Below, in pieces: positions 1,069 through 20,500 of a stretch of DNA of 29,470 bases. The translations under genes and the position numbers were made by a program. The notes beneath the pieces were generated by a model, which searched no databases, had not been told where the DNA came from, and saw nothing but the letters and a program-made list of their open reading frames with translations. Each line of letters starts with the position of its first letter. Position 1 is the stretch's first letter. This DNA is from Silvanigrellaceae bacterium (lineage in GTDB: Bacteria > Bdellovibrionota_B > Oligoflexia > Silvanigrellales > Silvanigrellaceae). The stretch lies in contig JBMSQQ010000043.1 in NCBI GenBank assembly GCA_049423385.1, forward strand, positions 1-29,470, written 5' to 3'.

Positions 1069-2097
1069 ATGACAAAACCAAAGAAACCATTGCGCGGACT
1101 GTTTGCCAGCACTGAAGCACCTGCTCCAACCCCATCGCGCCCTGCGATTCCTGTCCCGCCGTCGCGCAAGGAACGTCCGTCATTTCCTTCGACACCCCAA
1201 AAGCCGAAGACTCCACCCGAGCGTCTCGCTCCGCCACCACGGATCAAAACTCCGGCACCGATGATGATTATGGAACAAGCCGAGCCAGCGCCCGTGACCA
1301 TCATCGAAACGGTGCAACCTGTTGTGGTGCCCGTCATCGCCTCTCCTGAAAACAAGATCATGAGCATTCAATACAACTTCGACTCCATGCGCGACACCCG
1401 CGATTCCTGGCAGGAATTGGACTACGCGCATTTCCTCCGCAAACTCGACGCTGTGCAAACAGAAGCTTTCATCCTGAAGGGCAAGCTGCTTTCTGAAGCC
1501 AAAATTCGGTTTTTCGAAACGAACAAGGTCGGCTGGGCCGAGTTTTGTGAAATGAAACTCGACATGAACTACACGACCGCGAACCAGTACATCCGAGTGG
1601 CGACTGAATTTGATGTGACGTCACATCAACATCCTGATTTCGGCTTTGAACACTTCAAGGCCCTGCTCCCCCTCTCGATCGAGCAACGCAGTGATTTTCT
1701 CAACTCCAACGGCCCAGTGAGCGTGAAGCTCATTCGCCAGCGGGTCCGCGAAATCATCACAGCCCGTCCTTCAGACATTTCTGGGGCGACAACCACAAAA
1801 CCACTCAAGCAATCGCTGCGTTTCATCAAGATGCTCGAAGCGATCAAAGCTGAAGTGCTCACTCATGGCGAATCCTTCCAGGGCTTGACCCAACCCCAGC
1901 GATGGCAAGTCACGGCCGCCTGTCAGAACATTGCGGCACACCTGAACCACCTGGCACAGGTTCTGAGTTCAGATCCAATACAAGGCAGAGCGCTGCCAGG
2001 TGCAACATCCAGGGCTGGCGCTTTTGCAACAGCGGACGGAGTCGCTACAATGCAAGACGCCAGCACAATCCTGGAGCCCATCGGAAACTCAAACTGA
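1069..2097 (+). CDS. ParA-associated hypothetical protein (342 aa): basic N-terminal peptide, Pro-rich linker, DUF3102-like HTH region, C-terminal helical domain
   Basis: Starts 11 nt after the parA stop; the SD TAAGGA overlaps that stop. FILKGKLLSEAK...WAEFCEMKLDMNYTTANQYIRVA resembles DUF3102-type HTH domains (recall). No ParB GxRRxxA CTPase motif. Confidence 0.75.
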   Translation: MTKPKKPLRGLFASTEAPAPTPSRPAIPVPPSRKERPSFPSTPQKPKTPPERLAPPPRIKTPAPMMIMEQAEPAPVTIIETVQPVVVPVIASPENKIMSIQYNFDSMRDTRDSWQELDYAHFLRKLDAVQTEAFILKGKLLSEAKIRFFETNKVGWAEFCEMKLDMNYTTANQYIRVATEFDVTSHQHPDFGFEHFKALLPLSIEQRSDFLNSNGPVSVKLIRQRVREIITARPSDISGATTTKPLKQSLRFIKMLEAIKAEVLTHGESFQGLTQPQRWQVTAACQNIAAHLNHLAQVLSSDPIQGRALPGATSRAGAFATADGVATMQDASTILEPIGNSN

Positions 2098-2111
2098 ACA
2101 AGAGGACACCC

Positions 2112-3245
2112 ATGCTTCGCCGCACTCAATTGAACAATTCGAGCGTGGCTGGCGGAGGAAAGAGAAAATGGCAAGGCCTGATGGCCTTGCTTTTTTTTGT
2201 AGGAATCCATGCCAGCGCTCAAGCACAATCAAAAGCTACCGAAGCGTCCACCCCAAATAATCAGGTTCAATGCCGATTCATTCCACTGAATATCGGCAGC
2301 AAGAACAACCCGGATCCCTCAAGTGCAGCCTTCGCGAGTGCGCTTGAAGACTTCGAGCAATCCTTTTTGCTTGGCGACTCGGAGCTTTTTTCGTCAGTGG
2401 TGAGCCAGGCTCTCTTGAAGAAAAAGGAAGACGCAAAAAAGATTTTCGATGGCACCTTGCTTGAGTATGATCTCAGACGCGTGAAACTTCAGCGAAATTG
2501 GATGTGGGACATCCAATTGGGAACCACTCCGGAGCCCGGGCGGCTTGTTCCATGTGGTGAACTGGAAATTCAGCCCGTTTATGGACCATTGCATCAATAC
2601 GCAGTCCAGTACTCGGCGTTCAGCGGTTCAAATCAAACCCGACTTCTCGTTTTGTTTGCCGATCTTCCTGCGGGCAGCGAGTCGAGTAAAAAGGGAACGG
2701 CACAAAGGCCGGGATTGGTCCATTTGCAGGTGCAGCGTTGGACATACGACGGCCGCACCCCGGACCGGCTTCTTCTTGAGGCCAGAAAGGTTGCCAGTGG
2801 CGGAGATTCGGTCGCAGGTTTTCTGCTCGCAGAGGCATCGGCCAGAGTTCTGGAGATCAACCCCTATGTTGTTTCAGCGCAGTTGAAGGAAGCTCGCGAT
2901 CTTGCAACTCGCTTTGCCAACGGTATTGATTCCGCTCAAAGCAAAATGTTCGACAGCGCATTGCCCATTGCAGACTGGAAGCCAGAAAAACTGGTTCCCG
3001 TTTTCCGCGATGGTTCCCTCGCCGTTGGGCTGAAAATCCGGATGCAGAAAGAAATCGCCCTCAATGACCAAACGTCGAAGTGCATGGAAAGCGTCAAGAG
3101 GCTGTTTCCCAAGGGCACCGCCTGGAGAACATCTTTCTCGGGCGTTGAATGCATGACCTACGCCATCAACGAAGACGCCTCAAAGCCTCCGAAGGGAGGG
3201 AGCCAGTTTTTTCCGTGGAAGCAATTGGAAAAGAGTGATCACTGA
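2112..3245 (+). CDS. Exported hypothetical protein (377 aa)
   Basis: SD AGAGGA (2101-2106) precedes ATG 2112, which is 14 nt after the upstream stop. Basic N-region, hydrophobic LMALLFFVGI and AQA cleavage site. Four Cys in the mature region. Confidence 0.75.
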   Translation: MLRRTQLNNSSVAGGGKRKWQGLMALLFFVGIHASAQAQSKATEASTPNNQVQCRFIPLNIGSKNNPDPSSAAFASALEDFEQSFLLGDSELFSSVVSQALLKKKEDAKKIFDGTLLEYDLRRVKLQRNWMWDIQLGTTPEPGRLVPCGELEIQPVYGPLHQYAVQYSAFSGSNQTRLLVLFADLPAGSESSKKGTAQRPGLVHLQVQRWTYDGRTPDRLLLEARKVASGGDSVAGFLLAEASARVLEINPYVVSAQLKEARDLATRFANGIDSAQSKMFDSALPIADWKPEKLVPVFRDGSLAVGLKIRMQKEIALNDQTSKCMESVKRLFPKGTAWRTSFSGVECMTYAINEDASKPPKGGSQFFPWKQLEKSDH

Positions 3246-5767: not shown

Positions 5768-6379
5768 TCAGTCCACGATGTCCTCGGTCAATTTCTTTCT
5801 GATGTCGACAACGAGCGATTTCAACGAGTCCCCGAGCTCATCCACAGGCGAGTTGCGGACTGTCTCGCCGATCGGCGCCTTCAAAGGCAAGGTGTCAGAT
5901 AATTGACGCATCGACTTTGCGATCGCAATCGAACGGCGAATCGCGATGTGGAAAGCATCGAGCTCGAATGGTTTTCGAACGACATCCACGACCACAACGT
6001 GTGGAAAAGAGTTGATCTGAATATCGGCATGTTCTTCACCTTCGGTGAGAACGACCGGAACATGACGCCAATGGGCGGCAATCTTCTTGAGAAAATCAGC
6101 GTTGCTTTTTTTCGCCGGCGCCGCATCGGCAATCACCACCTGGATTGTCTTTTGCTTGAGATGCGTCAGAGCATCGGCAACACTGCGGGCCGCATGAACG
6201 TGGGAAAAATATCGATTGAGATGAATTTTGACGAATCGAAGAACCTCGTCAGATTCATCAACCACCAAAACATTGCTGTCCCGATCATATACCTTTGTGG
6301 GAGGGCGACTCATGGGCGGGATCGACTGAAAACCGCTCCCCCGCGGTCCCGGGTCCATATGCTGGCGCCTAGAAATCAT
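5768..6379 (-). CDS. Atypical response-regulator receiver-domain protein (203 aa) with a short C-terminal helical extension
   Basis: VLVVDE, VVIAD (phosphoacceptor position), PVVLT and RKPF motifs. ATG 6379 lies 2 nt after the upstream stop, with SD GGGGAG. Confidence 0.8.
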   Translation of the reverse strand: MISRRQHMDPGPRGSGFQSIPPMSRPPTKVYDRDSNVLVVDESDEVLRFVKIHLNRYFSHVHAARSVADALTHLKQKTIQVVIADAAPAKKSNADFLKKIAAHWRHVPVVLTEGEEHADIQINSFPHVVVVDVVRKPFELDAFHIAIRRSIAIAKSMRQLSDTLPLKAPIGETVRNSPVDELGDSLKSLVVDIRKKLTEDIVD

Positions 6380-6381
6380 GT

Positions 6382-7476
6382 TCACTCCCCTTGGGCTCTT
6401 AACATCAACCGCTCCGCCTGTGGCCGAAAGACATCGCCGGCCGTGGAACCAGACATATAGTCCAGTGCGTCCCTGCGGGCACTCAAAAGGTCTCCATCGA
6501 GAGCGGAAATCTCTCCCGAAAGCAAAAACCACACTCTCTCGGAAGGCCAATCCCTGCGACCACGCTCAAGCACACGCCGAGCGCTCTCGGTATCTTTACG
6601 ACCGATCAGGCATCGTCCCCAATTATAGGATACAGCAACATCACTGAAATCCTTCAGATAGAGTCGCTCAAGAAGATCGCATCCGCGTGTCAAATTTTTT
6701 TCAGTCAAAAACAACAATGCGGATTCCAACAGCAGACCCGGATGATCGGAATGCTCGACGAGTGAAAGACTGATTGCTGCTCTTGCATCCTCCAGTCGCC
6801 CATCAAGACGAAGACACTTTGCCTGCATGGCATAAAGTTCCTGGCGGAACTCAAATGGCTCCCACTGCAACCCGGAGGATGCCATTTTAGCACAGAGGTT
6901 GAAACTTGAGACGTCTGCCAGGAGACCTGCAAAAACCAGTGCTGTCCTGGAATTCAATTTGCGTGATGCAACGGCGTCATAGACCTCAAGTGCGCTTCGC
7001 ATCCTTCCGTTTCTGACAAATGCAACCCCACGCGCTTCGCCAATCCGCGTGCAAGTGTCATCGAATGACTCAGCGTCCCCAAGACAATCATTCCAGAATC
7101 CGTGAGTCTCCGACAAAACGTCATTCCAGCGCTCTCCGCTGAGCAGCATTTCAAGCGCGAAGATCAAATTCGACTCATCGTTTGACTGACTCCCCGGAGA
7201 GCCTTCCGCGAGCTTCCTTTTTTCTGAACGTGGGCTCTTTTGATCGGTTGCTGAAATCTGCGCGCCCGATCCAACCAAACGCTCAAGACGCGAAGACAAA
7301 GAAGATCTCGACTCGTATCTCTTCGAAATCTTCTTTTCGCTCGGCTCCTTGACCTCAACCGTCAGGGCTGGAGCAGGAACCACCTTTTCCTGTTCAACAG
7401 TTGTCTTGCAACCATTGCAAAAAACACCCGCGGCAACCCAAACAAAAAGCAAACAATATCGTGCAACAAGTATCAT
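6382..7476 (-). CDS. TPR-repeat probable lipoprotein (364 aa); candidate GltE/AglT-like
   Basis: Hydrophobic N-terminus ending in VFCNG-C. C-terminal TPR-like helices (AVSYNWGRCLIGRKDTESARRVLERGRRDWP). TGATG overlap with the upstream stop. Confidence 0.75.
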   Translation of the reverse strand: MILVARYCLLFVWVAAGVFCNGCKTTVEQEKVVPAPALTVEVKEPSEKKISKRYESRSSLSSRLERLVGSGAQISATDQKSPRSEKRKLAEGSPGSQSNDESNLIFALEMLLSGERWNDVLSETHGFWNDCLGDAESFDDTCTRIGEARGVAFVRNGRMRSALEVYDAVASRKLNSRTALVFAGLLADVSSFNLCAKMASSGLQWEPFEFRQELYAMQAKCLRLDGRLEDARAAISLSLVEHSDHPGLLLESALLFLTEKNLTRGCDLLERLYLKDFSDVAVSYNWGRCLIGRKDTESARRVLERGRRDWPSERVWFLLSGEISALDGDLLSARRDALDYMSGSTAGDVFRPQAERLMLRAQGE

Positions 7477-10400
7477 CAATGTTTGCCTCCCGGTGGCAGC
7501 AATTCGCCGAGCCCAACACCGAGAAGACTTCTGCTCCTTTCAACAAAAGGATTGTCCTCCGGCGAGCGCATGGCATCCAAGGAGCGCAGACCACCCTTCA
7601 ACGACATGATACGTGAATGAACAGCGTTCAATTTTCCGTCAAATCGAACCGCTGTTTTCAAATCCGCTTCAAAAAGACGAGACGCTGACTCCCGCAATCG
7701 GCTTACGTACAGACCAAAGTTGACAACAACCTCGTCGATGCATTTTGCAGAATTATAATTCGCTGGGTGTGAGCGCTCTCCCGTCAAACGACACAACTTG
7801 ACCATCGTGTCGAAATTCCTGGATACAGTGCTCAGTGAAGAGTCGAACGAAGCAGCATCCGAACTCCGGGAGGCACGGTCGCTTTCGCTCGACAAGAGCA
7901 TTTTCCACCTGCGGCTTGTCGAGTCCAAAAGCCCAACGAGAAGTCTATTGGTTTGAGGATGGCCTGGGACAAAAACTCCCTGACCTTTCTGAAGCACAAC
8001 AAGAGACTCTTCCAGCACTGCGAACAATCGTGAATATTTCCCCGATTCACCAAACGCAGCCCAGAATGGCAAGCTCTGCTCGACAAGGTCGCCTGCAATC
8101 ACCCAGGGATTCCGCGTCCTGCTTTTTCCTTTCCCGGGACCAACAGAAGCCTTCACCCACTCATTGAGATCAAGCGCAAGTATTGAGGCAACTGAAAAAT
8201 TGCCGGTGGCAAAGGCTCTGGTCGCCCAATCCAGCAGATGCGGATGCGTCGCCGCCGCATCACCCGACAAGGAAGCAACCTTTGTCAAAATTGTTCTTGC
8301 CGAGATCACTTCCGGCCACATTTTGAGTTCAGCAAAGATATCGCCTGCTCTCATGACTCCAGACTTTGCCGATCTGATCAAATCAGACCTTCCAGATTCC
8401 AACGCGGGGCCAGCAGCACCCAACCATGACTCGGCAGCACTCAAGAACCGACCTGTGCGGTTGTATGCTTCCCCAAGCGCATGCCGGACAGAGAACATGT
8501 CATGGGCAGAATACCCCGATGAACTGCTGATTCGCGCGCCTGTCGCCACACAAAGCACGTCGAGTCCGGCCAAACACGATTGCAAAGCAGCATCAACCCG
8601 CAGATCGCGGCCTGTCGCAGAGTCAGGAGAAAACCTGTCCGCACCTTCGATCAAGACCTGTACAGCCTCGAATATCCTTCCAGAATTTCGGAGTGCCAGT
8701 GACTTGCGGACGAGGTGGTATGCCATCACAGACTCAAACTTGAATCGAAGTCCGGAATCTGGCGCCGAGGACGCACTCAAGCGGTTCATAACCAACCAGG
8801 CTGCGGTCTCGATCTGGGCCGACACCTTTGGCTGAACCAGGATTCTCATGAGCGATGCCAATAGACTTTCGCGCTCGAACTGAAAAATCTCGGAGCTCGA
8901 ATCCTGGCTCAAAAGCAAGGAAACGGCGATCTTCTCGGCGTCGTTGAAGCGCTGTCTTTCAATGGCATCATTGACAGACTCCAATGCAAACTTTCTGATT
9001 TCAGAATCGTCACCATGCAGTTCCAGACTGTTGTGCACCAACGCCACGAGTGCAGACCAAGTTGAACCGTCGAATGAGGATCGACGTAATGCAGATCTGA
9101 ACATTTCAAGCCTGCTGAGTGTCACAGCTGTCTTTTGCTTGTCGGAATCGGAACAATTTTTGAACCAGGAGTAAACACGCTCTGCCAGGGGCTCAAATGC
9201 AGACGCTGCAAGAATCCGATGCGAAAGTACAAACGCAGGCAATTCAGAACACACTTCGGAACTTTCGGAATAAAGCGCTTCCGTCACTTTATAAATCGAC
9301 TGGATAGTACTTGAACTCATCGATGCAGGATTCTGAGTGGCCTTCGAAGACAAGGCTGCTCGGGCCCATTCACGCAAGAGCTTTCTTCTTCTGCCGTCGA
9401 GGGCAGAGTCCATCGATATTTCCTTTGCAATCGATGCTTGCGGCTGAAGTGAAAGAACCGCGCGAATTCGAAATTCATCCATCGCCTCGATTGCGCCGTC
9501 CTGCTCGTAAACTTCCATGGCTGTCGAGAAGAAATCCATACCGGATGAACCTCTGGAGAGCACGGGCTCAAGTGACTCAATCCATCTGATTGCTGTTTTC
9601 GCGGCATCTTTTTGTACCGCATATTTGAGTGAACGGATGAGTCCGACAGTCACCCATGCCGATCGCTGTGCCTCCTGTATCCAAAACGACGGTACAAAAT
9701 TGGGAGCTGTTTCACTCAACGAAACCGCCAACATCACACTCAATTCAGTTCGGACGGCGGTCGACAATGCACGTTCGTCGAAATCCAATGTTGAAGCGAG
9801 CTTCTCAAGACGAACGAGAGTCTCCTGGTATTTCATCAACCTGAAGGACACCCAGGCCATCCTGATTGCCAACAGCGATCCAGGAAAAACTTTCACCGAA
9901 GCCTTGTTCAAGGCAAAGCACTCTGCAGACTTCGAGTACATCTCCTCGGCCGCCCCGAATTCGGCATTGAAGAATTCGCCATCACCGGCAAGGGCAAAAG
10001 CCAGGCAGCGTTCATGTGTATTCTCAAAGGCATCCATTTGGGCAAGCTCAAAAACCTTTGAGCCAAATCGCCTGGCATCGGCAATTTCCTTGTCTGCAAG
10101 AAGTGTCGACAAGTACACGAGGCTCACTCTCAGAGCCGATCGACTTGCAGGAGCAAGTGACTGTGCATGCCGGACGGCTGTCTTCAAATACTCCCGCCGC
10201 TCTTTCCCGGAAACACCTCTTGCAAGAAACAGTGCAGACTGAACGCTGGTTTCATCCGGTGTAACGCTCTTGTACAATTCAGTCAGGCGAGTTTTGATGC
10301 CAATCGACATTTCGCTTGAGTCCCGCGACAGTTTGTCGATTCTCGAGTTGATTGGAACGAGGGACTGCGCGGATTCCGTCAATATCAAATTCATCAATTC

Positions 10401-10586
10401 GCCGGACCAGGCGTCATAATTATCCCGCAGCAAAGACCATGCGATGTCTTCCGAAAGATTCTTTTCCAGGACTGCTGCCCGGGCCGAGTCCGCGCAAAAG
10501 ACGAGAAATAACACAATCATCATGCATTTCGCGGTCAATTTTTTAATCATGGAACGGATGAATTTCGACCTGGTGATCCATTTCAT
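7476..10586 (-). CDS. Large exported alpha-solenoid/TPR-like protein (1036 aa); candidate GltD/AgmU-like
   Basis: Signal peptide (MMIVLFLVFCADSARA), SD GGAGG and ATGA overlap with the upstream gene. Helical-repeat character, including the segment AGDGEFF...AIRMAWVSFRLMKY...VRTELSVMLAVSLSE. Confidence 0.75.
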   Translation of the reverse strand: MKWITRSKFIRSMIKKLTAKCMMIVLFLVFCADSARAAVLEKNLSEDIAWSLLRDNYDAWSGELMNLILTESAQSLVPINSRIDKLSRDSSEMSIGIKTRLTELYKSVTPDETSVQSALFLARGVSGKERREYLKTAVRHAQSLAPASRSALRVSLVYLSTLLADKEIADARRFGSKVFELAQMDAFENTHERCLAFALAGDGEFFNAEFGAAEEMYSKSAECFALNKASVKVFPGSLLAIRMAWVSFRLMKYQETLVRLEKLASTLDFDERALSTAVRTELSVMLAVSLSETAPNFVPSFWIQEAQRSAWVTVGLIRSLKYAVQKDAAKTAIRWIESLEPVLSRGSSGMDFFSTAMEVYEQDGAIEAMDEFRIRAVLSLQPQASIAKEISMDSALDGRRRKLLREWARAALSSKATQNPASMSSSTIQSIYKVTEALYSESSEVCSELPAFVLSHRILAASAFEPLAERVYSWFKNCSDSDKQKTAVTLSRLEMFRSALRRSSFDGSTWSALVALVHNSLELHGDDSEIRKFALESVNDAIERQRFNDAEKIAVSLLLSQDSSSEIFQFERESLLASLMRILVQPKVSAQIETAAWLVMNRLSASSAPDSGLRFKFESVMAYHLVRKSLALRNSGRIFEAVQVLIEGADRFSPDSATGRDLRVDAALQSCLAGLDVLCVATGARISSSSGYSAHDMFSVRHALGEAYNRTGRFLSAAESWLGAAGPALESGRSDLIRSAKSGVMRAGDIFAELKMWPEVISARTILTKVASLSGDAAATHPHLLDWATRAFATGNFSVASILALDLNEWVKASVGPGKGKSRTRNPWVIAGDLVEQSLPFWAAFGESGKYSRLFAVLEESLVVLQKGQGVFVPGHPQTNRLLVGLLDSTSRRWKMLLSSESDRASRSSDAASFDSSLSTVSRNFDTMVKLCRLTGERSHPANYNSAKCIDEVVVNFGLYVSRLRESASRLFEADLKTAVRFDGKLNAVHSRIMSLKGGLRSLDAMRSPEDNPFVERSRSLLGVGLGELLPPGGKH

Positions 10587-12502
10587 CGGCCGGACCTCCA
10601 TTCGAGATTTTCACTTCGGATTCTTCGCGCATCGTTGATTCTGTCGCGGGTCCATTCGGCCGCCGACTTCTCCTTCAGGGTCCTGATCCTGATTTCTTCG
10701 TTGGCAATCTGCTCAGCAAGTTCAAGTGAACGTTCTTGTTTGTAGAGTTCAACATCCACGCTACCCAAAAGCTTGAGCAGCTGCGGCCGTATCAATTTTC
10801 CTGTCGTCTTCATGAACTGATCCAGATCGCTACGGATGCTGGAGCTGCTGGCGTTGACTTCAGCGAACGCCTTCGCCAATTTCCTTGCCTCTGCAAGCTT
10901 CCTGGAAAAAACCTCGTCTGATTCAAATTTCAATCTTTCGAGAAGACGAGCTGACTCCTGGAAATAGAGACCAGCCTGTGTGCTTTGGAAGCTTGGCTTG
11001 GACAAGCCCGCCAGTACTTTCTGAACATCGTCGAGCGCTTTTCCCACCCTGAAGATTCTCTCCTTGAGGGAGGAATGCTGCGTTGTCGTATGGGGGACAA
11101 GATTCATGGAAGCGGAGACAAAATCCATGAGAAGCTGTCGTTTTTCACGGCTCAAGGCAGCAATTTCTGCTTGATAATCCAAGCCCGGAGAAGCGTCGTT
11201 CCGGATCAGATCCACAGCTGCACTTCGGGCATTCAAGGTCCTCAGGGCTCCTTCGATCGTCGCAAGATTTCTTTTCATCAAGAGCGATCGTCGTGTGCTT
11301 TCCCCGGCACCAAGACGATGCAATCCTCTCCCCAGCTTTGACTGCATTCCAACAAATCGCTCAGAGACAAGCTGCAGTACCTTCTTGTCTTCCTCGGCAG
11401 ACAATTGCTCTGCCATCTGCGATATCAGCCGCTCCACCGAGGCAACAAGCTCCATCAAAATGGAGTCATTTCTGGCGAGCAATGGATCGTCATCAAATGC
11501 GAGAAGCTGCTCAAGTCTATCCTCGCGACCTAGCCAGGAGTCGAGCACCAACCGGATACCGTCGCTGCGCATCAGCAACTCCGTTTTTTGGGAGACCGAA
11601 AGAATGGCTCCAAGAGCAGTTTGCCATTCCCGGCTATCGACCTGATGCTGCTGACAGATAGACTCAATTCTTCGAAGAAGATCGAGGCTGATGTTCGATT
11701 GTTGGACTTTTAATCTGAGGTCTTCGATTTCATCCCTGTCCTGGCGGAGTATCCATCGTTGCCTTCGTGATTCTGCAATGGCTTGCTCACTGCCTTTTTC
11801 GACACCTTGTTTTCCCGGATGCATCTTCAGAACAATCGCATCGATTGAAGAGGAAATATAGGTCGTTTGTGGATCTCCAGCCATTGGAAATTGTGATTTC
11901 GCAGGTCCATTTTTCCCGGCTTTTGATGATTTCAGTGCCCTCAAACCTCTTTCAAAAAGCTCGATTCTTGCAAACTTCCAATCGGCAGAATCAATTCCTT
12001 TTCCAAGGGAGATGCGCGCCTTTTCAATCATTCGGCCTGCCTGCTCTGTTTCTCCGAGGAGCACAAAAACCGACGCCGCACGCAACCAGGCCGACCATGA
12101 ATATGAGGTTTCCGAGTTCTCTGCGAGGGCCGTGTAGACTCTGAATCTGGACTTGATTTCTTCAGCCTTTTGATTGTTTTTGTCTGATACACCGGGTGCA
12201 ACGAACTTGAAAAGAAAGCTGCATGACTCGAATTGATCGTAATCTGGATTTGCAATTCTAAGGCACTGATCGATTGTTCCTCTCAGTCTTGTGTCTTCTG
12301 AAATGTCCAAAGCAGGTGTCCATGAAACAGGCATCGACTGAAGGGAATGGAGATGTTGAACAAAGCCCCGCGCGTTCGACCACTCCAGATTGTTGAAGTT
12401 GTGCTCCTCAGCGTTGGCGCTTCTTCCTGTGGATAAAAGTGAGAAGACGAGACAGATTCTGGTCATTCTTGCTGAAGTCTTTTTTTTCGAGTTCAGAATC
12501 AC
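10583..12502 (-). CDS. Exported helical/coiled-coil protein (639 aa); candidate GltC-like
   Basis: GTG start with SD AGGAG and GTGA overlap. Signal peptide ending SANA. One TPR-like segment and a long coiled-coil-like C-terminal half. Confidence 0.72.
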   Translation of the reverse strand: MILNSKKKTSARMTRICLVFSLLSTGRSANAEEHNFNNLEWSNARGFVQHLHSLQSMPVSWTPALDISEDTRLRGTIDQCLRIANPDYDQFESCSFLFKFVAPGVSDKNNQKAEEIKSRFRVYTALAENSETSYSWSAWLRAASVFVLLGETEQAGRMIEKARISLGKGIDSADWKFARIELFERGLRALKSSKAGKNGPAKSQFPMAGDPQTTYISSSIDAIVLKMHPGKQGVEKGSEQAIAESRRQRWILRQDRDEIEDLRLKVQQSNISLDLLRRIESICQQHQVDSREWQTALGAILSVSQKTELLMRSDGIRLVLDSWLGREDRLEQLLAFDDDPLLARNDSILMELVASVERLISQMAEQLSAEEDKKVLQLVSERFVGMQSKLGRGLHRLGAGESTRRSLLMKRNLATIEGALRTLNARSAAVDLIRNDASPGLDYQAEIAALSREKRQLLMDFVSASMNLVPHTTTQHSSLKERIFRVGKALDDVQKVLAGLSKPSFQSTQAGLYFQESARLLERLKFESDEVFSRKLAEARKLAKAFAEVNASSSSIRSDLDQFMKTTGKLIRPQLLKLLGSVDVELYKQERSLELAEQIANEEIRIRTLKEKSAAEWTRDRINDARRIRSENLEWRSGR

Positions 12503-13206
12503 CTCGTCTCCTTTCTGAACTCATCTATAATCAGAGGCCTTTCCGGCTTTTTATTCTCTGGCGCTTTTGGTGCGCTCGAAACTTCGCCTTTTGTTTCATC
12601 CATGATCGTGACTGTTTGAACCTGTGAGTTTCCACCACTCGCCTGGATATTGATTTCGAAAATCCTGTCGATTGCCTTCCACGCAGCCTTGCTGCCGGCA
12701 AAGAATCTCCCGCCATAGGGAGAAACCTGGAATTGGAGTCGGACTTGATGCTTGCCTTCTGGAATGCGTCCAACGAAAAGAGGAAGTGGATTATTCTCAC
12801 TGACGATCAGCGCACTTTGAGTGTAGACAAAGGGACGTCCATCCATCGCCATCCGGATGTGACTCACAACCAACTTGTCGGTTTTGTTTTCATCTGGTGA
12901 AGTCGCGCTGAACGGCTTCAATTCAAGACGGTAATCCACAGTGGATTTGTCTTCGACGCCAAGGACTGAACGCTGCGTCGTGTCGATTCTTTTTTCCAGC
13001 TCTCGAATTTTCGCCTCGAGAGTGTTGGATCTCTCGACCAATTGGCGAATTTCCGTGGGTGTAGAATCTACAGTGGATTCAACTGAAAGCTCCGCTGCGT
13101 AAGCTTGAACGGGCAGGCAAAAAACGCAAACGCCGAAAGTGGGAACAAAAAATTCCACCACCTTCTGCAAATGTGATTGAGGGCAGAATACAGCGTTCTT
13201 TTTCAT
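12499..13206 (-). CDS. Exported protein with an N-terminal coiled coil and a beta-rich domain (235 aa)
   Basis: Signal-like VCVFCLPVQAYA, heptad segment EIRQLVERSNTLEAKIRELEKRID, then beta-rich MDGRPF...LFVGRIPEGKHQVRLQF. Start uncertain (ATG 13206, weak SD). Confidence 0.7.
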   Translation of the reverse strand: MKKNAVFCPQSHLQKVVEFFVPTFGVCVFCLPVQAYAAELSVESTVDSTPTEIRQLVERSNTLEAKIRELEKRIDTTQRSVLGVEDKSTVDYRLELKPFSATSPDENKTDKLVVSHIRMAMDGRPFVYTQSALIVSENNPLPLFVGRIPEGKHQVRLQFQVSPYGGRFFAGSKAAWKAIDRIFEINIQASGGNSQVQTVTIMDETKGEVSSAPKAPENKKPERPLIIDEFRKETR

Positions 13207-13298
13207 TGCGGTCTCGTCCCGACTGGAGTTGAAACACTTCTCCCCACTCGAGCTTCGCACGGACCGACAGAACACCCATCAGCAGATCTTTCCCAGCA

Positions 13299-14396
13299 CT
13301 AGAGGAATTTGACCCGCCCAAAAGAAGGATTTTCGTATCTCTGACCAAAATCACTTATCATTTCATGAAGTTCTATAACGGACTTGGCTTTTGTGGTCAT
13401 TTTCCAAAACGCATGACCAAATTGATACCATCGTGCCCCGGTTGCCGCGAAAAACCTGAATTTTTCGAGACAATAATCCTCCTGAGGGAAATGTTTCGCC
13501 ATGAGGCCAAGCAACATCAGGCACGCGCGAATGTACTCACGGCCTTCTTCTTCACTGGACCATGGACAGCGATCGCCTTCACGGTTGGGGGGGCTTTCCT
13601 GGTATCCCAGTCGCTCGGCAATTTGCCACATAATCCATGGTCGAGCAGTCGCCGCGCGCGCAATCATTGCGCCGTCTGCCTTGTAGTCACTCAATAGAGC
13701 AAGTGCATCATCTGCGGTTTGAATATCGCCGTTGCCAACCACCGGGATTGATCTTTCACGGGCGACCTGGCTGACCAAATCCCAATTGGCCGTTCCCTTG
13801 TGCTGCTGAGCCCTCGGACGAGGATGAATTGTAATCCAGTCTGCACCCGCTTTTTCGAGGGCCTCCGTGAATTCGAGAAGGTAGGGCAAAGTTTCATTCT
13901 CACCCTGGCCGCCTCTCAATTTCACGCTCACGGGTCTGTCGGTATGTCGTTTGGTCGCAATGACAACCGATGCAGCGTAGTCCTTGTCGCCCATCAACCG
14001 AACACCCCAGTTGTGTCGCAACGTGTGCGACACGGGACACCCCATATTGATATCAAAGCCCCAGGGTTTCACAGTCATCAGTTTTTCAACACTCGGCGCG
14101 ATGTATTTTTCTTCATTCCCGAGCAACTGAGGTATAAAAAACTGCTCAGACTCAGCTGTCTTCAATTCATTCGTGGTCGACAATTTTTCATCGGGCAACC
14201 GACGCGTGGACAACATTTCGGTGAATCTGAGGACATTCAATCCACGCGGCGTGTAGGCACGGATCAATTCGCGAAAAGCCACATTTGAAAGTCCCACCAT
14301 GGGGGCCACGAGGAAGGGAAAATCGATTCCCAATCGATTGAGCCGGCTTTCAGGAAATCGGCAAGCGTGAATCGGCCGGCCATTGTTTTTGTCCAT
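13299..14396 (-). CDS. dus: tRNA-dihydrouridine synthase (Dus family), 365 aa
   Basis: VAPMVG, FTEM, PQLLG, DINMGCP (catalytic Cys), VSVKLR, ITIHPR, GNGDI and MIARAATARPW. ATG 14396 is 13 nt after the omp85 stop. Subfamily (B or C) not resolved. Confidence 0.92.
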   Translation of the reverse strand: MDKNNGRPIHACRFPESRLNRLGIDFPFLVAPMVGLSNVAFRELIRAYTPRGLNVLRFTEMLSTRRLPDEKLSTTNELKTAESEQFFIPQLLGNEEKYIAPSVEKLMTVKPWGFDINMGCPVSHTLRHNWGVRLMGDKDYAASVVIATKRHTDRPVSVKLRGGQGENETLPYLLEFTEALEKAGADWITIHPRPRAQQHKGTANWDLVSQVARERSIPVVGNGDIQTADDALALLSDYKADGAMIARAATARPWIMWQIAERLGYQESPPNREGDRCPWSSEEEGREYIRACLMLLGLMAKHFPQEDYCLEKFRFFAATGARWYQFGHAFWKMTTKAKSVIELHEMISDFGQRYENPSFGRVKFL

Positions 14397-14409
14397 GAGT
14401 CTATTCCAG

Positions 14410-17400
14410 TCAGAAATTGGCGCCAATCCCGATGTGATAAGCGCCAGGGACCGGGAATAGCCCAAACAAACGGGAAGTGGAACGTCTTTTTACACAAGCT
14501 GGAGCCTCGCTGGTCCCTGCAACATCCGATGGGTTGATGCATTTTTCGTTCCGGCCTGCATCTTGCGGTTCGTGCAGGGGAAAGCCGACGTCGACGTTGA
14601 TTGATGCGAAATTCGAAATGATGTACCTGATCCCGGCACCCGCGGAAAAGTAGCTGTTGATGCTATAATCCTTGAAGAAATCCCGACTGAGAAGATTGAT
14701 TGAACCGTCGCCGACGACGCTCGCGGCCTTGAGAGCACACTGATCTTCCGAACCAGGGTCGAGATAATCTCCTTCCCCTTTGAGGCGCGTCTGCAAGGTT
14801 TGAAGCTCGGTTCCGGTGAAGAATGCGGCACCGGAGTCAAGGAAACCCGCAAATCCAAGACTTTCACCCAACCACGGTGAACGCAATCGGACCTCGCTCT
14901 TTGCATAGAGGACGTTTGTGGCGCCAATGGGTTTCACAGTTGGCTGACACTGGAGTGAAGGATTGCCTTGAGGAGGAACAAAATTGAGCCACAGCAAGGG
15001 TCCAGGAGTGACTGTGCTGCTCGCCTCGGGGAAACCCCGAACAGTCGATCGACCTGCGAGAGTCGCCCGCCGCGAACTGGGAGCGGTCACCGCGACTGCC
15101 TGCGCATTTACAACATCCGAAACCTTGATTCCGCCCAAATTGATCGCACCTGAAAGCCGTCGATAAATGGGAAAGAAAAATCCTGTGTCCACGCTGTATC
15201 GGTCATATCGAACGTCTGACAACAATCCAAATCTCGCATGATTGGAAACCACATCGAACGTCATCCCATTCACAGGCCATTCCACATTGTCTCTTGAGTC
15301 GAACGATGCTGCCAAAAGAAACTCGCGAATCTTCACAGTTGGCCTGTCGAGAGCCTCCAAAGGCTTCAGGTCTTCGCCGAATGCTTTCGACCACTCGTGA
15401 ATCACCCGCGACTGAACAGTCCATGACCTTCCGGCGAACTGGGGACGCCAAGCGAAACCCGTGTCAAGCGTTTCAAAATATCGATCGGAAAGTGACTGGG
15501 CTGAAACTTCCAGTCCCGAAACAATACTCCAGTCCAGTGGAGACACATAACTGCCAAAACGAATCAATGGCTCCATGAGACCAATAGTCACTTTCCGACC
15601 CATGATTCTCTGGTTTGAAAAGACAGAGCTCTGCAATTTTTCCTGGCTCAATGCGAGGGCAGATGTGAATCTCAATCCATCCGCGGAAAGGTTGTTCTTT
15701 GCAAAATCTACATTGAAGCGATATCCGCTGCGTGTTCCATAACTGGGACTGAGTCCAAGTGAATAACTTCTTTTGGCTGTGAGTCGGATCACAAGATCAA
15801 GAACAGAATCGCGTCGCTCAAGTGCCTCTGCAGATATTGGCTCGATGATGACTGTATCAAACAGATCGTGCTTCAAAATTCTCGCACGACACTGTTCGAG
15901 TCCGTCGGGTGAAAAAATGTCACCCGTTCTGAGTCCACTTTCAATGATGATTCGCTCCTGCTTTCCAAAACTGTCACCTTCCGCATAGATCTTGCCAATC
16001 CGAACCAATGGACCGGGATTCAAGTCAACTGTCACCTGAATGGGTCTCACCAAGCCAACGGGCGGCAAGCTTTTTGTCACGACTTGAATTGATGCGTATG
16101 CGTAGCCTGCATTCATCAGTTCCAGCCGAACCTCATCCTCAAGGTTCCTTAGAATTTGGGCGTTCAGCGGCTGACCCGGCTGAAGAGTTTTTTCCTGAAA
16201 ACTTTTGGTCAAATTGAAGTCAACCGGCCGACCAAGAATTGTCACGTCGCGAAGAACCGAACGGTAGCCAGCCTTGACCTCAAAGACCAATTTGACACTG
16301 CGACCATCGGGAGAAAATTGCGCAACGGGATCGGCAACAGCCGCCTCGGCAAAGCCCTCGTCCAGATACAGACCCACCAGCTTGTCGCGATAACGCGGCA
16401 GCGAATCTTCAACAAATGGAACGGATCCTTCCAAAACCCCCGGAATCAAATCAAGCCGCTCAACAACCTCCTGACGAGGCAACGGTAGTTCGCCAATAAA
16501 CTGTGTATCACTGATCACAATCAGCGGGCCTGTTTGAACAAAAAAGCGAACAACAGTGTCTCCGTTTGGATCAGTGACACGAACGGGCCCGGTGACCACA
16601 GCAGTCGCAAAGCCCCGGTTGAAAAATTCACGCCTGACTTCTGCGCGCAACTCTTCGTCAGAAAGATTGAGCACATCGTACGCGGAGATTTTCTCCCTGA
16701 ACTCGGAAACAACATCTGTGACAATACCTGTTTGTCGATTCAAGACCTCGATGCGTGTCTTTGGCCCTCTGACATACCGAATCTTGAGAGAAGCTCGTTG
16801 GCGATCGGCAGAGATGCTCAACGACAACAGGCTCAGATGACTGTCGAAATAGCCATCGGCCAACAACCTGCTCTTTTGCCGCTCGAGCACTTCTTCAAGC
16901 GCTGCCTTGTCACAAAGTGAACCCAGTTCAATTGGTGTTGTAAAGTAATCGAAAAAGCTCTCGTCCGGCTCTGTTTTTATCTCCGCAATCCGACAAGGTG
17001 TCTCCAACGAAACTGGAAACACGACCTTGAGTTCACCACCAAGCCCCGCCACTGCCTCTGGTGAATCAACCCGTGCCATCAAATAACCACGCTCAGCCAA
17101 CTTGCTGCGGATGGCCTCGCGATCACGCTCTGCCTCTTCCACAATGAAGGGTAGGCCGACTTTTGTCTTCAGCGCAACGCGCACCTGACGAATCTGTGCG
17201 GAATTGAGTCCACGGAAAGCAACTTCACCCACTCTAGGCAAGCGGTTCGCGGTGACCTGGAGAACACCTCCGCCATCCTGGGAAACCCTTGATACAACAA
17301 TATTCTGGAGTCCGAGACGTTCAAAAAGAACGTGAATGATTGCATTTGAAATGTCTGATGCCGGCAGTTCGTTGAGGATCGCGAGAAGATCCGAAGGTGG

Positions 17401-17577
17401 ATCCCACGAGGTTCCATCCAAAATGAATTGAACCCGGGGTCGAGAGTCAATCTCATTTTTTTCATATGCATCTGCTGCAGATGCACTGAAAGAGCACACA
17501 GACATCAGGATCACTGCGGCAAGACAACGAATTATTCCGATAATATTTCGACCGACACTTGTCTCTCGCCCCAGCAA
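14410..17577 (-). CDS. Omp85-family outer-membrane protein (BamA/TamA type) with many POTRA domains (1055 aa)
   Basis: Signal peptide (SASA). Repeated POTRA hallmarks (ERGYLMARV, ADGYFDS, NRGFATAVV, DEGFAEAAV, NAGYAYASI, HDLFDTV). Barrel motifs VRGF and FLDSG, C-terminal beta-signal YHIGIGANF. TTG start with SD GGAGG. Confidence 0.9.
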   Translation of the reverse strand: MLGRETSVGRNIIGIIRCLAAVILMSVCSFSASAADAYEKNEIDSRPRVQFILDGTSWDPPSDLLAILNELPASDISNAIIHVLFERLGLQNIVVSRVSQDGGGVLQVTANRLPRVGEVAFRGLNSAQIRQVRVALKTKVGLPFIVEEAERDREAIRSKLAERGYLMARVDSPEAVAGLGGELKVVFPVSLETPCRIAEIKTEPDESFFDYFTTPIELGSLCDKAALEEVLERQKSRLLADGYFDSHLSLLSLSISADRQRASLKIRYVRGPKTRIEVLNRQTGIVTDVVSEFREKISAYDVLNLSDEELRAEVRREFFNRGFATAVVTGPVRVTDPNGDTVVRFFVQTGPLIVISDTQFIGELPLPRQEVVERLDLIPGVLEGSVPFVEDSLPRYRDKLVGLYLDEGFAEAAVADPVAQFSPDGRSVKLVFEVKAGYRSVLRDVTILGRPVDFNLTKSFQEKTLQPGQPLNAQILRNLEDEVRLELMNAGYAYASIQVVTKSLPPVGLVRPIQVTVDLNPGPLVRIGKIYAEGDSFGKQERIIIESGLRTGDIFSPDGLEQCRARILKHDLFDTVIIEPISAEALERRDSVLDLVIRLTAKRSYSLGLSPSYGTRSGYRFNVDFAKNNLSADGLRFTSALALSQEKLQSSVFSNQRIMGRKVTIGLMEPLIRFGSYVSPLDWSIVSGLEVSAQSLSDRYFETLDTGFAWRPQFAGRSWTVQSRVIHEWSKAFGEDLKPLEALDRPTVKIREFLLAASFDSRDNVEWPVNGMTFDVVSNHARFGLLSDVRYDRYSVDTGFFFPIYRRLSGAINLGGIKVSDVVNAQAVAVTAPSSRRATLAGRSTVRGFPEASSTVTPGPLLWLNFVPPQGNPSLQCQPTVKPIGATNVLYAKSEVRLRSPWLGESLGFAGFLDSGAAFFTGTELQTLQTRLKGEGDYLDPGSEDQCALKAASVVGDGSINLLSRDFFKDYSINSYFSAGAGIRYIISNFASINVDVGFPLHEPQDAGRNEKCINPSDVAGTSEAPACVKRRSTSRLFGLFPVPGAYHIGIGANF

Positions 17578-17579
17578 AC

Positions 17580-20500
17580 CTATTTTCCTCCAAATTGGAA
17601 TTTGAGCCCACCCGAAATTTCGGAATAGGAACCAATCTGCGAGGAACGGCGGTCGAATCCGCCCACCATGTTGACACTCTCGTTTATAAATATTGTTCCT
17701 GTGAGTGACTGCCGACTCGGCTCATAGTCAAGTCCGAGATTGAATTTCTCGCCCAGATCACGACTCGCCCTTGCTCGCCAACTGCTTTGCCCGCCATCCA
17801 GGATTGGTTGCAACTCAAAGCGATCGACAAAACCTCTCGTGATTTTTGAAACGGCTTGACTCAATGGATCATCAAAAAGCCCGACAACCTGATTTGCGAG
17901 TGCCTGGGTCACAGCGGTTTGCGTGGTTTCTCCGGGGCCACGGCCGGTTGAAATCATGCGTATCAATGCAGGGCGCGTCAGCGGATTTCCATCCGGTCCC
18001 GTCGACGGATCGCTCCATATATTGAGACGCGGCTTGGAAAGCGGTCCCTCTGCGCCGACAAATACGTTGTATTTTTCAATTTTGGCCGTCATTTGTGCGT
18101 CTATCTTTGGCTCAATTTTGACGATATTGTCGAAAACAGCCTCCGCCCGGGTCACATCGAATCTTGTTTTCAAGAGATTGAGCACTCCGTTGTCAAGCCG
18201 AACCTGACCAGACAAAATCGGCTCAACATCGCTTCCTGAAAGTCGAACAGCCGATGACAGTCTGCCCCGAAGGCAATTGCTTTGAATTGTGAAACTGTTG
18301 TCAGCCTCAATTCCAACATTCAAAAGCACACCGGGAGTGACTTGTTTCACAAGGGTACTTTCGCCCCCTCCTTTTCCGGACCTGATGAATTCCTGGCAGG
18401 TTGCATCGCGATAAGCGCGCCCCTTTGCAATCCGGATTTCGCCACCCACAGTGTACGGACGTCCAGACCCCGTGATTTCAACTTGCCCGTCGAGGGTCGT
18501 CTCAACTGTTTCAAACACTTCCTGAGGCCAGCGGAACTGTGCCGATCGCATATTCGCTCTCAGCGCCAAGGCCGGCTCACCTGCATTTTTTTCGTGCTCG
18601 GTTGCAAGATCAATTGTTCCAATCAAATCCACCTGCCCACTGCCCTTGCTTCCAGTCAGGGAGGGAATCTCAATCCTTGAGTCATCAAACACAATTTTTC
18701 CGTTCAGTCCGGTAATGGGTGGAGCAAAGTATTTTCCAGCGACAGAAACATTCTCCAGTTTCGCCTCGCCTCGCAACGTCGTTCCATCAGCGGACTTCTC
18801 CACCTCTCCGTTGACCACGATTGAACCGGTTGAAGTTGAAATCAGGTCAGAGACCTGGGCAAGAATTTCAGACTCAAGTTTTGCTTCAAGCATGCTGGTG
18901 TAAAAGCCGGTTTCCAACGCATACCGACCCTGAGTCTTGACAGTGCCCGCAGGCCCCATGACCAGCAGTCTCGAACTGGACAATTCGCCATCGGAAAGTA
19001 CTATCTGTACTGGATTGCTGAGGTTGAAATTCGACTTTCCGACTTGAATCCTGAGCTTGCTGACCTTACCGCTCCCATCGATTCGTGACAGGATTTTACG
19101 GAAATCGCCAAGAACCTTCTTGAAGCCTGGCGCGGTCACACTCATGTCTGATGAAATTTCGCCAGTCACCTTTACTGCGCCGTTGCCTTTCGCAAGAGCG
19201 GGAATGTACTTGAAGAGCTCAAACGAACGCAGGCTCATAAAAAGTTGAGTTGAGCGTTCAAACGAATGGTCAAGAATCATTCGCGCCTGAACTTGATCGA
19301 ACAGTCCCGAGGCGGTGACGTTGAGTGGTCCTCCGCCATGCGATGATGCGCTCCACAAAATCGACCCGAGGGAATTGTTGGCCCACTTGAACCGGTCGAT
19401 TCGACCAGATGACGAAAGTTCCCAGTCACGGACTCCACCTTGAATCGAGCCGCGCAAATCCAACAAGCCGGAAACAGCCTCACCATCTTCGCCTTTGAAT
19501 TGAAACGGCACTGATTGAACATCGGCCCGAACCGAAAGAGATTTCTGCGAGATGCTTTCAATTTCAAATATCGCTTTGGAAGCGGGAAGTTCAGATGACA
19601 TTGCTGATCGATTCGCATTGCCGGAAAATCCGATCATTCCAATCTCAAGGTTCTGTGTGTAAAGCCGACTTCCAGAACACCATCCTTGTTGGCAAAGCAA
19701 ACTTGCCTTCACATCCGATGCCTTGAATTGAGGATTCGACAGGTTGCGGATGGCAAACGCGAGCTGAAAATCCGATCGCAGGATATCGCGCAAACTTCCG
19801 TCCATTTGAAAATTTGAGACAGTCAGTTGGCCACGGGTGTTCTTTGAAAGCTGCCTTCCCTGCTCGCCAAAGACCTTAAGCAAATCCTCGACCTTGCCAT
19901 CAAACCTGGCGTCGACTGAAATTTTCCTGCTTTCAAAGCCAATCGACATGCGGCGAGAGGTAACGCTCGGCCTTTGCTCATCGCCTTCCAGCCAAGCCTC
20001 GGCATGCTGAGATGTGAAACCATTCCTGTCGAGACTAATCTGAGCTGCCAAGCGTGGAATTGCCAATCCAAAAACCGATGCGTCGTTCAACTGGACATCC
20101 GCCCTGAACGTGACTGGCTTGCTCTTCGAAGACTCGATGGAGCCGCTGAAGTTCATCTCGCCGTCTATGGGCTCACGCACGAAATAGGACACCAGTGATG
20201 CAGGAGCAGATTGAACGTGAAAGCGAAAGCTTCTGCTCGATTCAAGATAATTGATCAGTCCCTTGGCCAGTGAGACATCGGTTGGCCTCTCGAGTTCCTC
20301 TTGCCCGCATTGTGCTGATGATCCGGAAAAAGTCATATGCCTTGAATCGCTGTCGATGCGGAGATTGACTTCACAATTGGGCAGCGGAAATCGATTGGGC
20401 TCAAAATTCGGGACCAGCATTTTTGAAACAGACACCAAGCCTGATATCACGAGAGTGAAGCGCTTTTCTGCCGGAGCATGCATCAAACCACTCACAATCA

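Follow-up and report, generated by a model that had tools for sequence, protein, structure and literature searches.

Glt-like 'core complexes' represent one envelope machine that has been re-used for gliding and for spore-coat assembly. Other envelope-spanning machines have dedicated lytic transglycosylases; AgmT, the lytic transglycosylase relevant to the Glt complexes, is of the MltG/YceG type and is not known to be linked to the glt clusters. Here we describe five adjacent genes of a Silvanigrellaceae bacterium, encoding four exported proteins (called X, H, S and T) and a receiver protein (RR), that are located in a 29,470-nucleotide stretch of DNA referred to as the window (assembly GCA_049423385.1, contig JBMSQQ010000043.1, or C43, positions 1-29,470). 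Our explanation, to which we assign a probability of roughly 0.72, is that these genes are the Silvanigrellaceae copy of a motor-less module of the Oligoflexia that has paralogs of GltD and GltE and would form a periplasmic scaffold.

Several published observations are relevant to this comparison. In the portion of PMC11761067 that describes the architecture, GltD is a central pillar and GltE is bound to the GltD C-terminal domain in an AlphaFold model. The Nfs machine of Myxococcus xanthus is driven in trans by the AglRQS motor, as described in PMC3858216, and two other M. xanthus paralog clusters, G4 and G5, have no effect on motility according to the passages of PMC3169522 that deal with them. 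PMC11444678 describes AgmT, which is homologous to a lytic transglycosylase of E. coli, as linking Glt complexes to peptidoglycan.

The module described here resembles the M. xanthus Agl-Glt system in having a helical/TPR protein of 500-700 aa, followed by an exported TPR protein of about 1000-1200 aa and then a TPR lipoprotein of about 350-450 aa. The module differs from Agl-Glt in that it has no AglRQS, GltG/GltJ, GltA/B/H barrels or GltF, and its protein in the GltC position (C') is without the GltC C-terminal domain; it adds X, the receiver and, in the relatives of the window genus, an SLT lytic transglycosylase. Like Nfs and G4/G5, it would be a Glt-derived paralog set without its own motor that serves a non-motility task; Nfs, however, retains barrels, NfsF, NfsG and NfsH. 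The modules of the relatives open with an SLT-domain enzyme, which recalls AgmT and would fit a complex that crosses or binds peptidoglycan, but this enzyme is SLT/MltD-like and operon-encoded, and in the family of the window it has moved out of the operon.

X, H, S, T and RR are five consecutive minus-strand genes (Table 1). The X/H and H/S junctions are 4-nt overlaps (GTGA and ATGA, respectively), the S/T junction is a 1-nt overlap (TGATG) and a 2-nt gap separates T from RR, with Shine-Dalgarno-like purine-rich stretches upstream of H, S, T and RR. Alternative longer starts are possible (258, 1041, 365 and 260 aa), and we prefer the shorter ones because of the ortholog lengths; for example, the receiver has 205 aa in all nine other loci of the genus. 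The gene order X-H-S-T-RR is kept in the 10 genus loci examined (X in all nine loci that reach it), and the proteins have stable lengths across these loci, i.e., 639-649 aa for H, 1030-1050 aa for S and 361-374 aa for T. Since the order recurs in all 10 loci, the arrangement is not due to chance. The N-termini of X, H and S look like signal peptides and T has a lipobox (..GVFCNGC|K..), both features having been judged by eye rather than with a signal-peptide predictor.

The first-pass annotation had read this region as five coupled genes with these overlaps, coding for an exported coiled-coil/beta protein, an exported helical protein, an exported solenoid, a TPR lipoprotein and a receiver protein, and most of that description stands. 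The coordinates, junctions and order agree, Pfam recognizes TPR_14 in T (29.8 bits) and Response_reg in RR, and the AlphaFold2 (AF2) models discussed below contain a helix plus a beta-sandwich for X and are entirely helical for H. The term solenoid for S is borne out in part: language-model features and homology make S TPR-like, whereas Pfam gives nothing. A scan of the window proteins with NCBIfam added no family to the Pfam results.

The wider relationships of these genes emerged from S. The protein has no Pfam or NCBIfam family, yet the Atlas language-model features score it as TPR-like (0.93, the ten best families all being TPR). A word-indexed search of 5.8 billion clusters returned six relatives of S, and a profile then found 20 representatives in an exhaustive search of 1.84 billion. 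In 131 species genomes of the phylum the S profile matched all 12 other genomes of the genus, and outside the genus there were just three matches, all very weak, to open frames with lengths of 1024-1052 aa. These three matches led to loci ordered SLT, X, C', D', E', receiver. In these loci, the SLT protein has 416-436 aa, the X-like protein 235-259 aa, the TPR proteins C' and D' 736-760 and 1018-1044 aa, and the TPR lipoprotein E' 388-393 aa; a 191-aa receiver is present in one of the two full loci examined.

This arrangement is conserved well beyond the family. The complete six-gene order is present in 18 of 22 loci from other families, and the remaining four have the receiver on the other side, have no receiver, run into a contig end or were only partly detected by BLAST (one locus each). 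An SLT/MltD-like enzyme (Pfam SLT, 72.8-85.3 bits for the proteins of two loci) is the first gene of the module in 21 of the 22 loci. A profile made from three D' proteins matched 114 of the 131 phylum genomes, paralog matches included. When 185,579 species genomes were scanned for two conserved peptide motifs of the receiver, 101 relatives were retrieved, a range that is a lower bound because a pattern scan may miss diverged copies. Of the 80 that were kept, most carry Silvanigrellaceae, Silvanigrellales, Oligoflexales, Oligoflexus (including the cultured O. tunisiensis Shr3) or Pseudobacteriovorax titles, and the other relatives kept have broad or evidently mislabelled titles of metagenome-assembled genomes (Pseudomonadota, Deltaproteobacteria, Betaproteobacteria, Polynucleobacter and Bdellovibrio). 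In the literature searched on the Oligoflexia, including Silvanigrella, Oligoflexus and Pseudobacteriovorax, we found no description of Glt-like clusters or of this module, and the papers retrieved for GltC, GltD, GltE and the 'core complex' were all on M. xanthus.

The window has X, D', E' and the receiver in the order of the module; SLT is gone from the operon, and at the C' position the homology is weak. From these comparisons the window genes are quite probably a fast-evolving Silvanigrellaceae copy of the Oligoflexia-wide module SLT-X-C'-D'-E'-receiver, and we are slightly more confident of this identity and ancestry than of the explanation as a whole.

The connection to the Glt proteins was evaluated by comparing profiles with hhalign, using four loci from other Silvanigrellaceae genera as a bridge between the window and the class-wide families. 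Different TPR families match each other in these comparisons at E values as low as 6.4e-9 (C' with GltE-like proteins 6.4e-9, C' with E' 2e-8 and D' with C' 2e-7), and wrong-partner controls for the window-versus-module comparisons gave E values of 0.016-0.2. S matches the class-wide D' at 3.7e-9 over 634 colinear columns and the D' of other Silvanigrellaceae genera at 6.5e-20 over 721 colinear columns. The latter match the class-wide D' at 2.4e-34 over 875 columns, and the class-wide D' in turn is colinear with the GltD-like proteins of the two canonical Glt clusters of the same genome, on contigs C5 and C53, at 1.9e-33 (860 columns) and 4.7e-39 (905 columns). Compared directly with the GltD-like family of C5, S reaches just 7.1e-5 over 166 columns. 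By this chain of profiles, S is D', a hyper-diverged paralog of the GltD-like TPR pillar whose link is seen only via the intermediates.

T behaves in the same way. It matches the class-wide E' at 3e-5 over 101 columns, the E' of the other Silvanigrellaceae at 4.8e-20 over 250 columns and the GltE-like family of C5 directly at 8.2e-6. The E' of the other Silvanigrellaceae matches the class-wide E' at 2.8e-19, and the class-wide E' matches the GltE-like families at 4.8e-20 and 3.3e-28, as compared with only 1e-3 and 6.8e-5 for D-type and C-type proteins. Again via intermediate profiles, T is E', a TPR lipoprotein of the GltE type whose gene immediately follows that of the GltD-type protein. The E values of D' and E' are far beyond the cross-type TPR background, and therefore, D' is a true paralog of the GltD-like proteins and E' of the GltE-like ones.

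The protein in the C' position is a more difficult case. H has no Pfam or NCBIfam family, and a search of 5.8 billion clusters gave three matches to it. The AF2 model, built from 12 sequences (mean pLDDT 75.4), is all-helical: the N-terminal half consists of short repeat-like (TPR-like) helices, the helices of the central part are longer, and the C-terminus is a single helix of 128 residues (509-636). If this uninterrupted helix is real, it would be about 19 nm long by our estimate, which is about the width of the periplasm. A fold search with the model gave no match at E<=0.001 (the lowest Foldseek E was 6.6e-3, and the top ten matches had TM-scores of 0.10-0.16), and in the Atlas the best feature score, 0.85, falls short of the bar of 0.9, with a poor Atlas model (pLDDT 0.43). 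H matches the class-wide C' at 1.3e-4 over 403 columns. The C' proteins of the bridge loci match the class-wide C' at 4.5e-12, and the class-wide C' matches the GltC-like families at 1.3e-12 and 8.8e-12 in the N-terminal TPR stretch only. When the GltC C-terminal domain was compared with the C-terminal half of H and with that of the class-wide C', the E values were 0.12-0.47; as a control, this domain matches between two real GltC types at 1.2e-17. H occupies the C' position, then, and the profile comparison weakly supports its homology to C', making it the weakest link among the window genes.

X is the most distinctive of the exported proteins. In its AF2 model (31 sequences aligned, mean pLDDT 76), a helix of 33 residues (49-81) precedes an eight-strand beta-sandwich (89-201) that appears Ig/transthyretin-like, with the signal peptide at the N-terminus. 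No fold could be assigned from Foldseek (best E 7.4e-3), and a VIA search retrieved generic Ig/transthyretin-like sandwiches (Z up to 6.2, root-mean-square deviation 3.0-4.1 over 84-117 residues). A Pfam scan gave weak coiled-coil noise and no known family, and each of the 16 matches in a profile sequence search is a 'hypothetical protein' or has no name. The sequence searches with S and H likewise returned no named relative. X matches the class-wide X at 1.7e-11 over 145 columns. We also considered that X might be a GltA/GltB barrel. This candidate was ruled out by the E values of 0.08-0.43 against the Glt barrel families (0.08-0.8 for the barrels and CglF-like proteins together) and by the model of a soluble beta-sandwich with a helix. 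On the basis of its sequence relatives and predicted structure, X is a new helix plus beta-sandwich subunit that is a signature of the module and not a Glt component.

A model of the complex of X with H supports binding between the two. In three runs the ipSAE was 0.74, compared with 0.00 for the best control; of 157 solved complexes, 116 attain the mark used for ipSAE, as do two of 215 mismatched pairs, counts that apply just roughly here because the X-H run used custom alignments. The runs share at least 64% of their contacts and the pLDDT of the partner is at least 63. In the model, the X helix and one edge of the sandwich lie against residues 247-325 and 402-467 of H. The conservation of the predicted interface has no clear enrichment (invariant columns are five of 25 in H, about three being expected, and two of four in X, about 1.5 being expected), and it is not counted as support.

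The receiver is a single-domain protein (Pfam PF00072, 37.9 bits; cut-off 30.2), predicted to be cytoplasmic, with N-terminal and C-terminal extensions of 35 and 55 residues. Asp41, Asp85 and Lys136-Pro-Phe are invariant in the 20 receivers aligned and the Thr is retained, and so, judging from the alignment, the phospho-acceptor residues Asp, Thr and Lys are kept. A motif in alpha-1, F-KIHLN--FS, is family-specific and is invariant from the window genus to the most distant relatives. RR matches the class-wide receiver at 2.6e-23 over 153 columns; it is 82-94% identical within the genus and 56-57% identical to the receivers of the three other-Silvanigrellaceae loci where one was found. As a separate observation, the receivers of the window genus have AAPAKKSNA in place of the RMPxxDG loop after the acceptor Asp and DESDE in place of the DDD acidic pocket, both of which are canonical in the rest of the family.

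The same genome also has two canonical Glt clusters (Table 1), which provide a useful comparison. On C5, the barrel matches TIGR04565 (OMP_myx_plus) at 70.6 bits, above the cut-off, and the GltC-like protein matches NF033756 at 155.6 bits (E 1.3e-45), under the equivalog cut-off of 450; these are accompanied by a 1073-aa TPR protein, a 380-aa TPR lipoprotein and a 659-aa protein with FHA and TonB_C domains. The latter is the domain pair that Table 1 of PMC3169522 gives for GltG. The C5 gene set is the 'core complex' of Luciano et al. 2011 plus a barrel. On C53, the barrel scores 80 bits, the GltC-like protein 69.6-78 bits (NF033756) and a 140-aa CglF-like protein 40.5 bits (NF033764), and the two TPR proteins have 1170 and 352 aa. 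A lipid-transport ABC system (MlaEFD) lies directly upstream of the C53 set; its MlaD protein has 514 aa with a long coiled-coil region, and an MlaD plus Glt-like cluster is also present in another genome of the genus. Both kinds of cluster are found repeatedly in the class: of 22 loci examined, 15 are of the C5 type and seven of the C53 type. NF033756 matches 112 of the 131 phylum genomes (E<=1e-5); the frames listed for it mostly have about 450-610 aa, and none of those listed reaches the 730-880 aa of the C' proteins.

The module has the same C-D-E order and size classes as the C5 and C53 clusters, and each of the three sets shows class-wide conservation. The canonical clusters, in contrast to the window, reach the GltC, CglF and OMP_myx_plus models, and their proteins are 52-82% identical within the genus, compared with 21-47% for the exported window proteins. 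Furthermore, a second Silvanigrellaceae genus, g8, keeps the module even though none of its 13 genomes has a GltC-model match, and therefore, the module is independent of the canonical clusters. Rather than a degenerate form of an nfs-type cluster, the module is a conserved lineage in its own right, to which SLT, X and the receiver are particular.

The first-pass annotation had proposed that the five genes are a highly diverged Glt/Nfs paralog with GltC-like, GltD-like and GltE-like proteins. This proposal survives for S and T via the intermediate profiles and for the conservation of gene order, both in the genus and across the class. It fails for H, in which a likeness to GltC is not detectable, and the nfs-type ancestry that it suggested does not fit a module with SLT, X and a receiver of its own. 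The size classes on which it drew are not evidence when taken alone. Its statement that no motor, gltG, gltF or barrel gene is in the window was confirmed by the domain scans: TIGR04565 matches in the genome are limited to C53, C5 and C18, none of the nine MotA_ExbB matches is on C43, and neither FHA nor TonB_C was detected with Pfam when 12 window proteins and the 15 proteins of the module loci of two relatives were scanned. The genome search that it recommended located both gltG and aglRQS on C5. The NCBIfam models for CglB and TraA had no match in the genome.

A number of results weigh against our explanation. No curated Glt model reaches any window protein: NF033756, the GltC model, has no match in the window even at E<=10; T has no match to NF033758, the GltE equivalog, at E<=1, and the window is absent among the 12 matches of its own genome; and a model for GltD did not come up in the NCBIfam scans. 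As references for GltD and GltE, we used proteins of the same phylum that were named by their cluster partners, not by comparison to M. xanthus. H gave an E value of 0.25 with the C' of the other Silvanigrellaceae genera and 0.13 and 0.37 with the GltC-like families. The match of C' itself to GltC is three to four orders above the TPR background and the GltC C-terminal domain is missing from it (E 0.19-0.47). SLT is absent from the window operon, and its ortholog is on contig C9, adjoining an M17 peptidase. Two complete g8 genomes (loci L215 and L216) have no receiver at the module locus. A look-up for the 7.4-kb stretch of the five genes found no expression data. Finally, the module encodes no inner-membrane protein that would connect a cytoplasmic receiver with the parts in the periplasm.

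The genes upstream of X suggest another interpretation. Genes for a TamB-like protein, an Omp85 protein with POTRA repeats and Dus are co-directional with the module, directly upstream of X, and in the Silvanigrellaceae they stand where the SLT gene was. Thus, in this family the module might work with the TamB-like/Omp85 pair in outer-membrane protein or lipid assembly and not in force transmission. The order TamB-Omp85-Dus-X-C'-D'-E' is kept in the window genus (g1) and in g8, with about 33% identity in Omp85; the 92-nt gap between Dus and X has no promoter-like site; and the D' and C' proteins of the relatives give sub-threshold matches to the BamD and YbgF TPR models. The window Omp85 is also not the main BamA, and the pair looks like a translocation and assembly module (TAM) rather than the housekeeping BamA because contig C7 has a better-scoring Omp85. 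However, homologs of TamB, Omp85 and Dus are missing from the surroundings of all 22 module loci of other families, the gene upstream of the module is a different one in another Silvanigrellaceae locus (L145), and the gene for an unrelated tRNA enzyme (Dus) intervenes, so that the synteny within the family may be mere inheritance. We consider a shared function with the TAM pair unlikely.

A few observations on these neighbors can be added. The window Omp85 has four POTRA matches and scores 135.5 bits with the BamA model, under the cut-off of 297, and the 815-aa Omp85 on C7 scores 136.6 bits with PF01103 compared with 61 for the window protein. A 315-aa frame overlaps the start of the TamB-like gene by 4 nt and may belong to the TamB operon.

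Table 1. Genes of the module, their neighbors in the window, and loci on other contigs of the same genome
Feature	Positions	Strand	Length	Remarks
X	12499-13206	-	235 aa	ATG start
H	10583-12502	-	639 aa	GTG start
S	7476-10586	-	1036 aa	ATG start
T	6382-7476	-	364 aa	ATG start
RR (receiver)	5768-6379	-	203 aa	ATG start
Dus	13299-14465	-		Pfam
Omp85 with POTRA repeats	14410-17577	-	1055 aa	Pfam
TamB-like	17580-21716	-		Pfam PF04357, 84.8 bits
Frame at the start of TamB-like	21713-22660	-	315 aa	no Pfam or NCBIfam family
Frame	1902-3245	+	447 aa	no Pfam or NCBIfam family
Second Omp85	C7, 15696-16655		815 aa	
C5 cluster	5782-16174 of the fetched locus			MotA_ExbB (AglR-like), two ExbD, barrel, GltC, GltD, GltE, GltG, then M23 peptidase
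C53 cluster	6980-17620 of the fetched locus			MlaE, MlaF, MlaD, barrel, GltC, GltD, GltE, CglF-like

It is equally unlikely, in our opinion, that the module is the periplasmic part of a true Glt/Nfs force-transmitting machine for gliding, surface transport or predation, with the motor and the TonB-like linker supplied in trans. Such a machine would be in keeping with D' and E' as Glt paralogs, with the nine MotA/ExbB-family loci in the genome and with the AglRQS motor that, as indicated above, Nfs borrows in M. xanthus. But Nfs has its own TonB-like NfsG and barrels and the module has neither, g8 keeps the module in the absence of GltC-model matches, and the G4 and G5 clusters of M. xanthus mentioned above do not affect motility.

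The rate at which the window proteins have diverged raises the question of whether the copy is a decaying remnant, i.e., one that has drifted under relaxed constraint after the loss of SLT and no longer forms a working complex. Compared with three genomes of the genus, the window proteins are 41-46% (X), 21-34% (H), 31-37% (S) and 41-47% (T) identical, whereas canonical proteins from the same genome pairs are 52-77% (GltC-like), 60-82% (GltD-like) and 62-69% (GltE-like) identical and the receiver is 82-85% identical. The rate of evolution of the exported proteins is about double that of the canonical Glt paralogs. Even the closest genus pair is only 61% identical in S, and synonymous sites are saturated for the calculation of dN/dS. 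Decay would also account for the failure of Pfam to recognize TPR motifs in H and S. However, the four frames are intact and of near-constant length in all 10 genus loci, the start/stop overlaps are kept in the window, S has dozens of invariant columns and H about 25, and the model of the X-H complex passes its controls. Furthermore, the module is also the fastest-evolving of the three sets in a genus that retains SLT, in which genomes G088 and G087 are 35, 41 and 51% identical in X, C' and D' and 79 and 75% identical in type-1 GltC and GltD. Decay is therefore improbable, more so than the two interpretations just discussed.

The least probable alternative, that the similarity to Glt is generic TPR likeness and the module is unrelated to Glt, draws on the cross-family TPR background noted above, on the C'-GltC match within a few orders of it and on the relatives' E' proteins, whose NF033758 matches (51.7-54.5 bits; cut-off 225, with the E proteins of the canonical clusters at 35-42 bits) rank under generic TPR models, but D' and the GltD-like proteins are colinear over 860-905 of about 1040 columns at E values at least 24 orders beyond the background, E' prefers E-type over D-type and C-type proteins, and the C-D-E order and the lipoprotein nature of E are common to both systems.

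If the window genes are, as we favor, a copy of the Oligoflexia module, a mechanism can be proposed, although only tentatively. X, C', D' and E' would assemble into a periplasmic scaffold in which D' would be a long TPR pillar. The lipoprotein E' would anchor D' to a membrane at the C-terminal part of D', by analogy to the modelled GltE-GltD pair. C' would provide a long helical stalk and X would cap it, a contact that is backed by the complex model. The assembly may pass through peptidoglycan or act on it, as suggested by the dedicated lytic transglycosylase encoded by the relatives. Since the module has neither a motor nor a TonB-like linker, it would be either static or powered in trans by another MotA/ExbB-type stator of the genome, as Nfs is by AglRQS. 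Presumably the receiver would couple the assembly, or its activity, to a kinase.

Carrying this explanation further is more speculative still. The module might be a third, previously unrecognized Glt-derived machine of the Oligoflexia, one that has shed the motor, the linker and the barrels, has gained SLT, X and the receiver, and serves as a signal-controlled scaffold on or through peptidoglycan. In the Silvanigrellaceae it might have come under the TAM operon, and its fast evolution would fit a role at the outer envelope, where contact with phage, prey or predators, for example, might exert diversifying pressure.

In conclusion, size classes together with gene order can indicate real, very remote homology that is beyond the reach of curated models. 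Several sets of Glt paralogs, such as G4 and G5 of M. xanthus, are still without a known function, and the module would represent a further route of specialization, in which the GltD/GltE pair is kept, the motor, linker, barrels and GltC-specific domain are dropped, and a transglycosylase, a subunit and a receiver are added. The culturable carriers of the module, including Oligoflexus tunisiensis Shr3 and Pseudobacteriovorax, make the function of a motor-less GltD/GltE scaffold testable.

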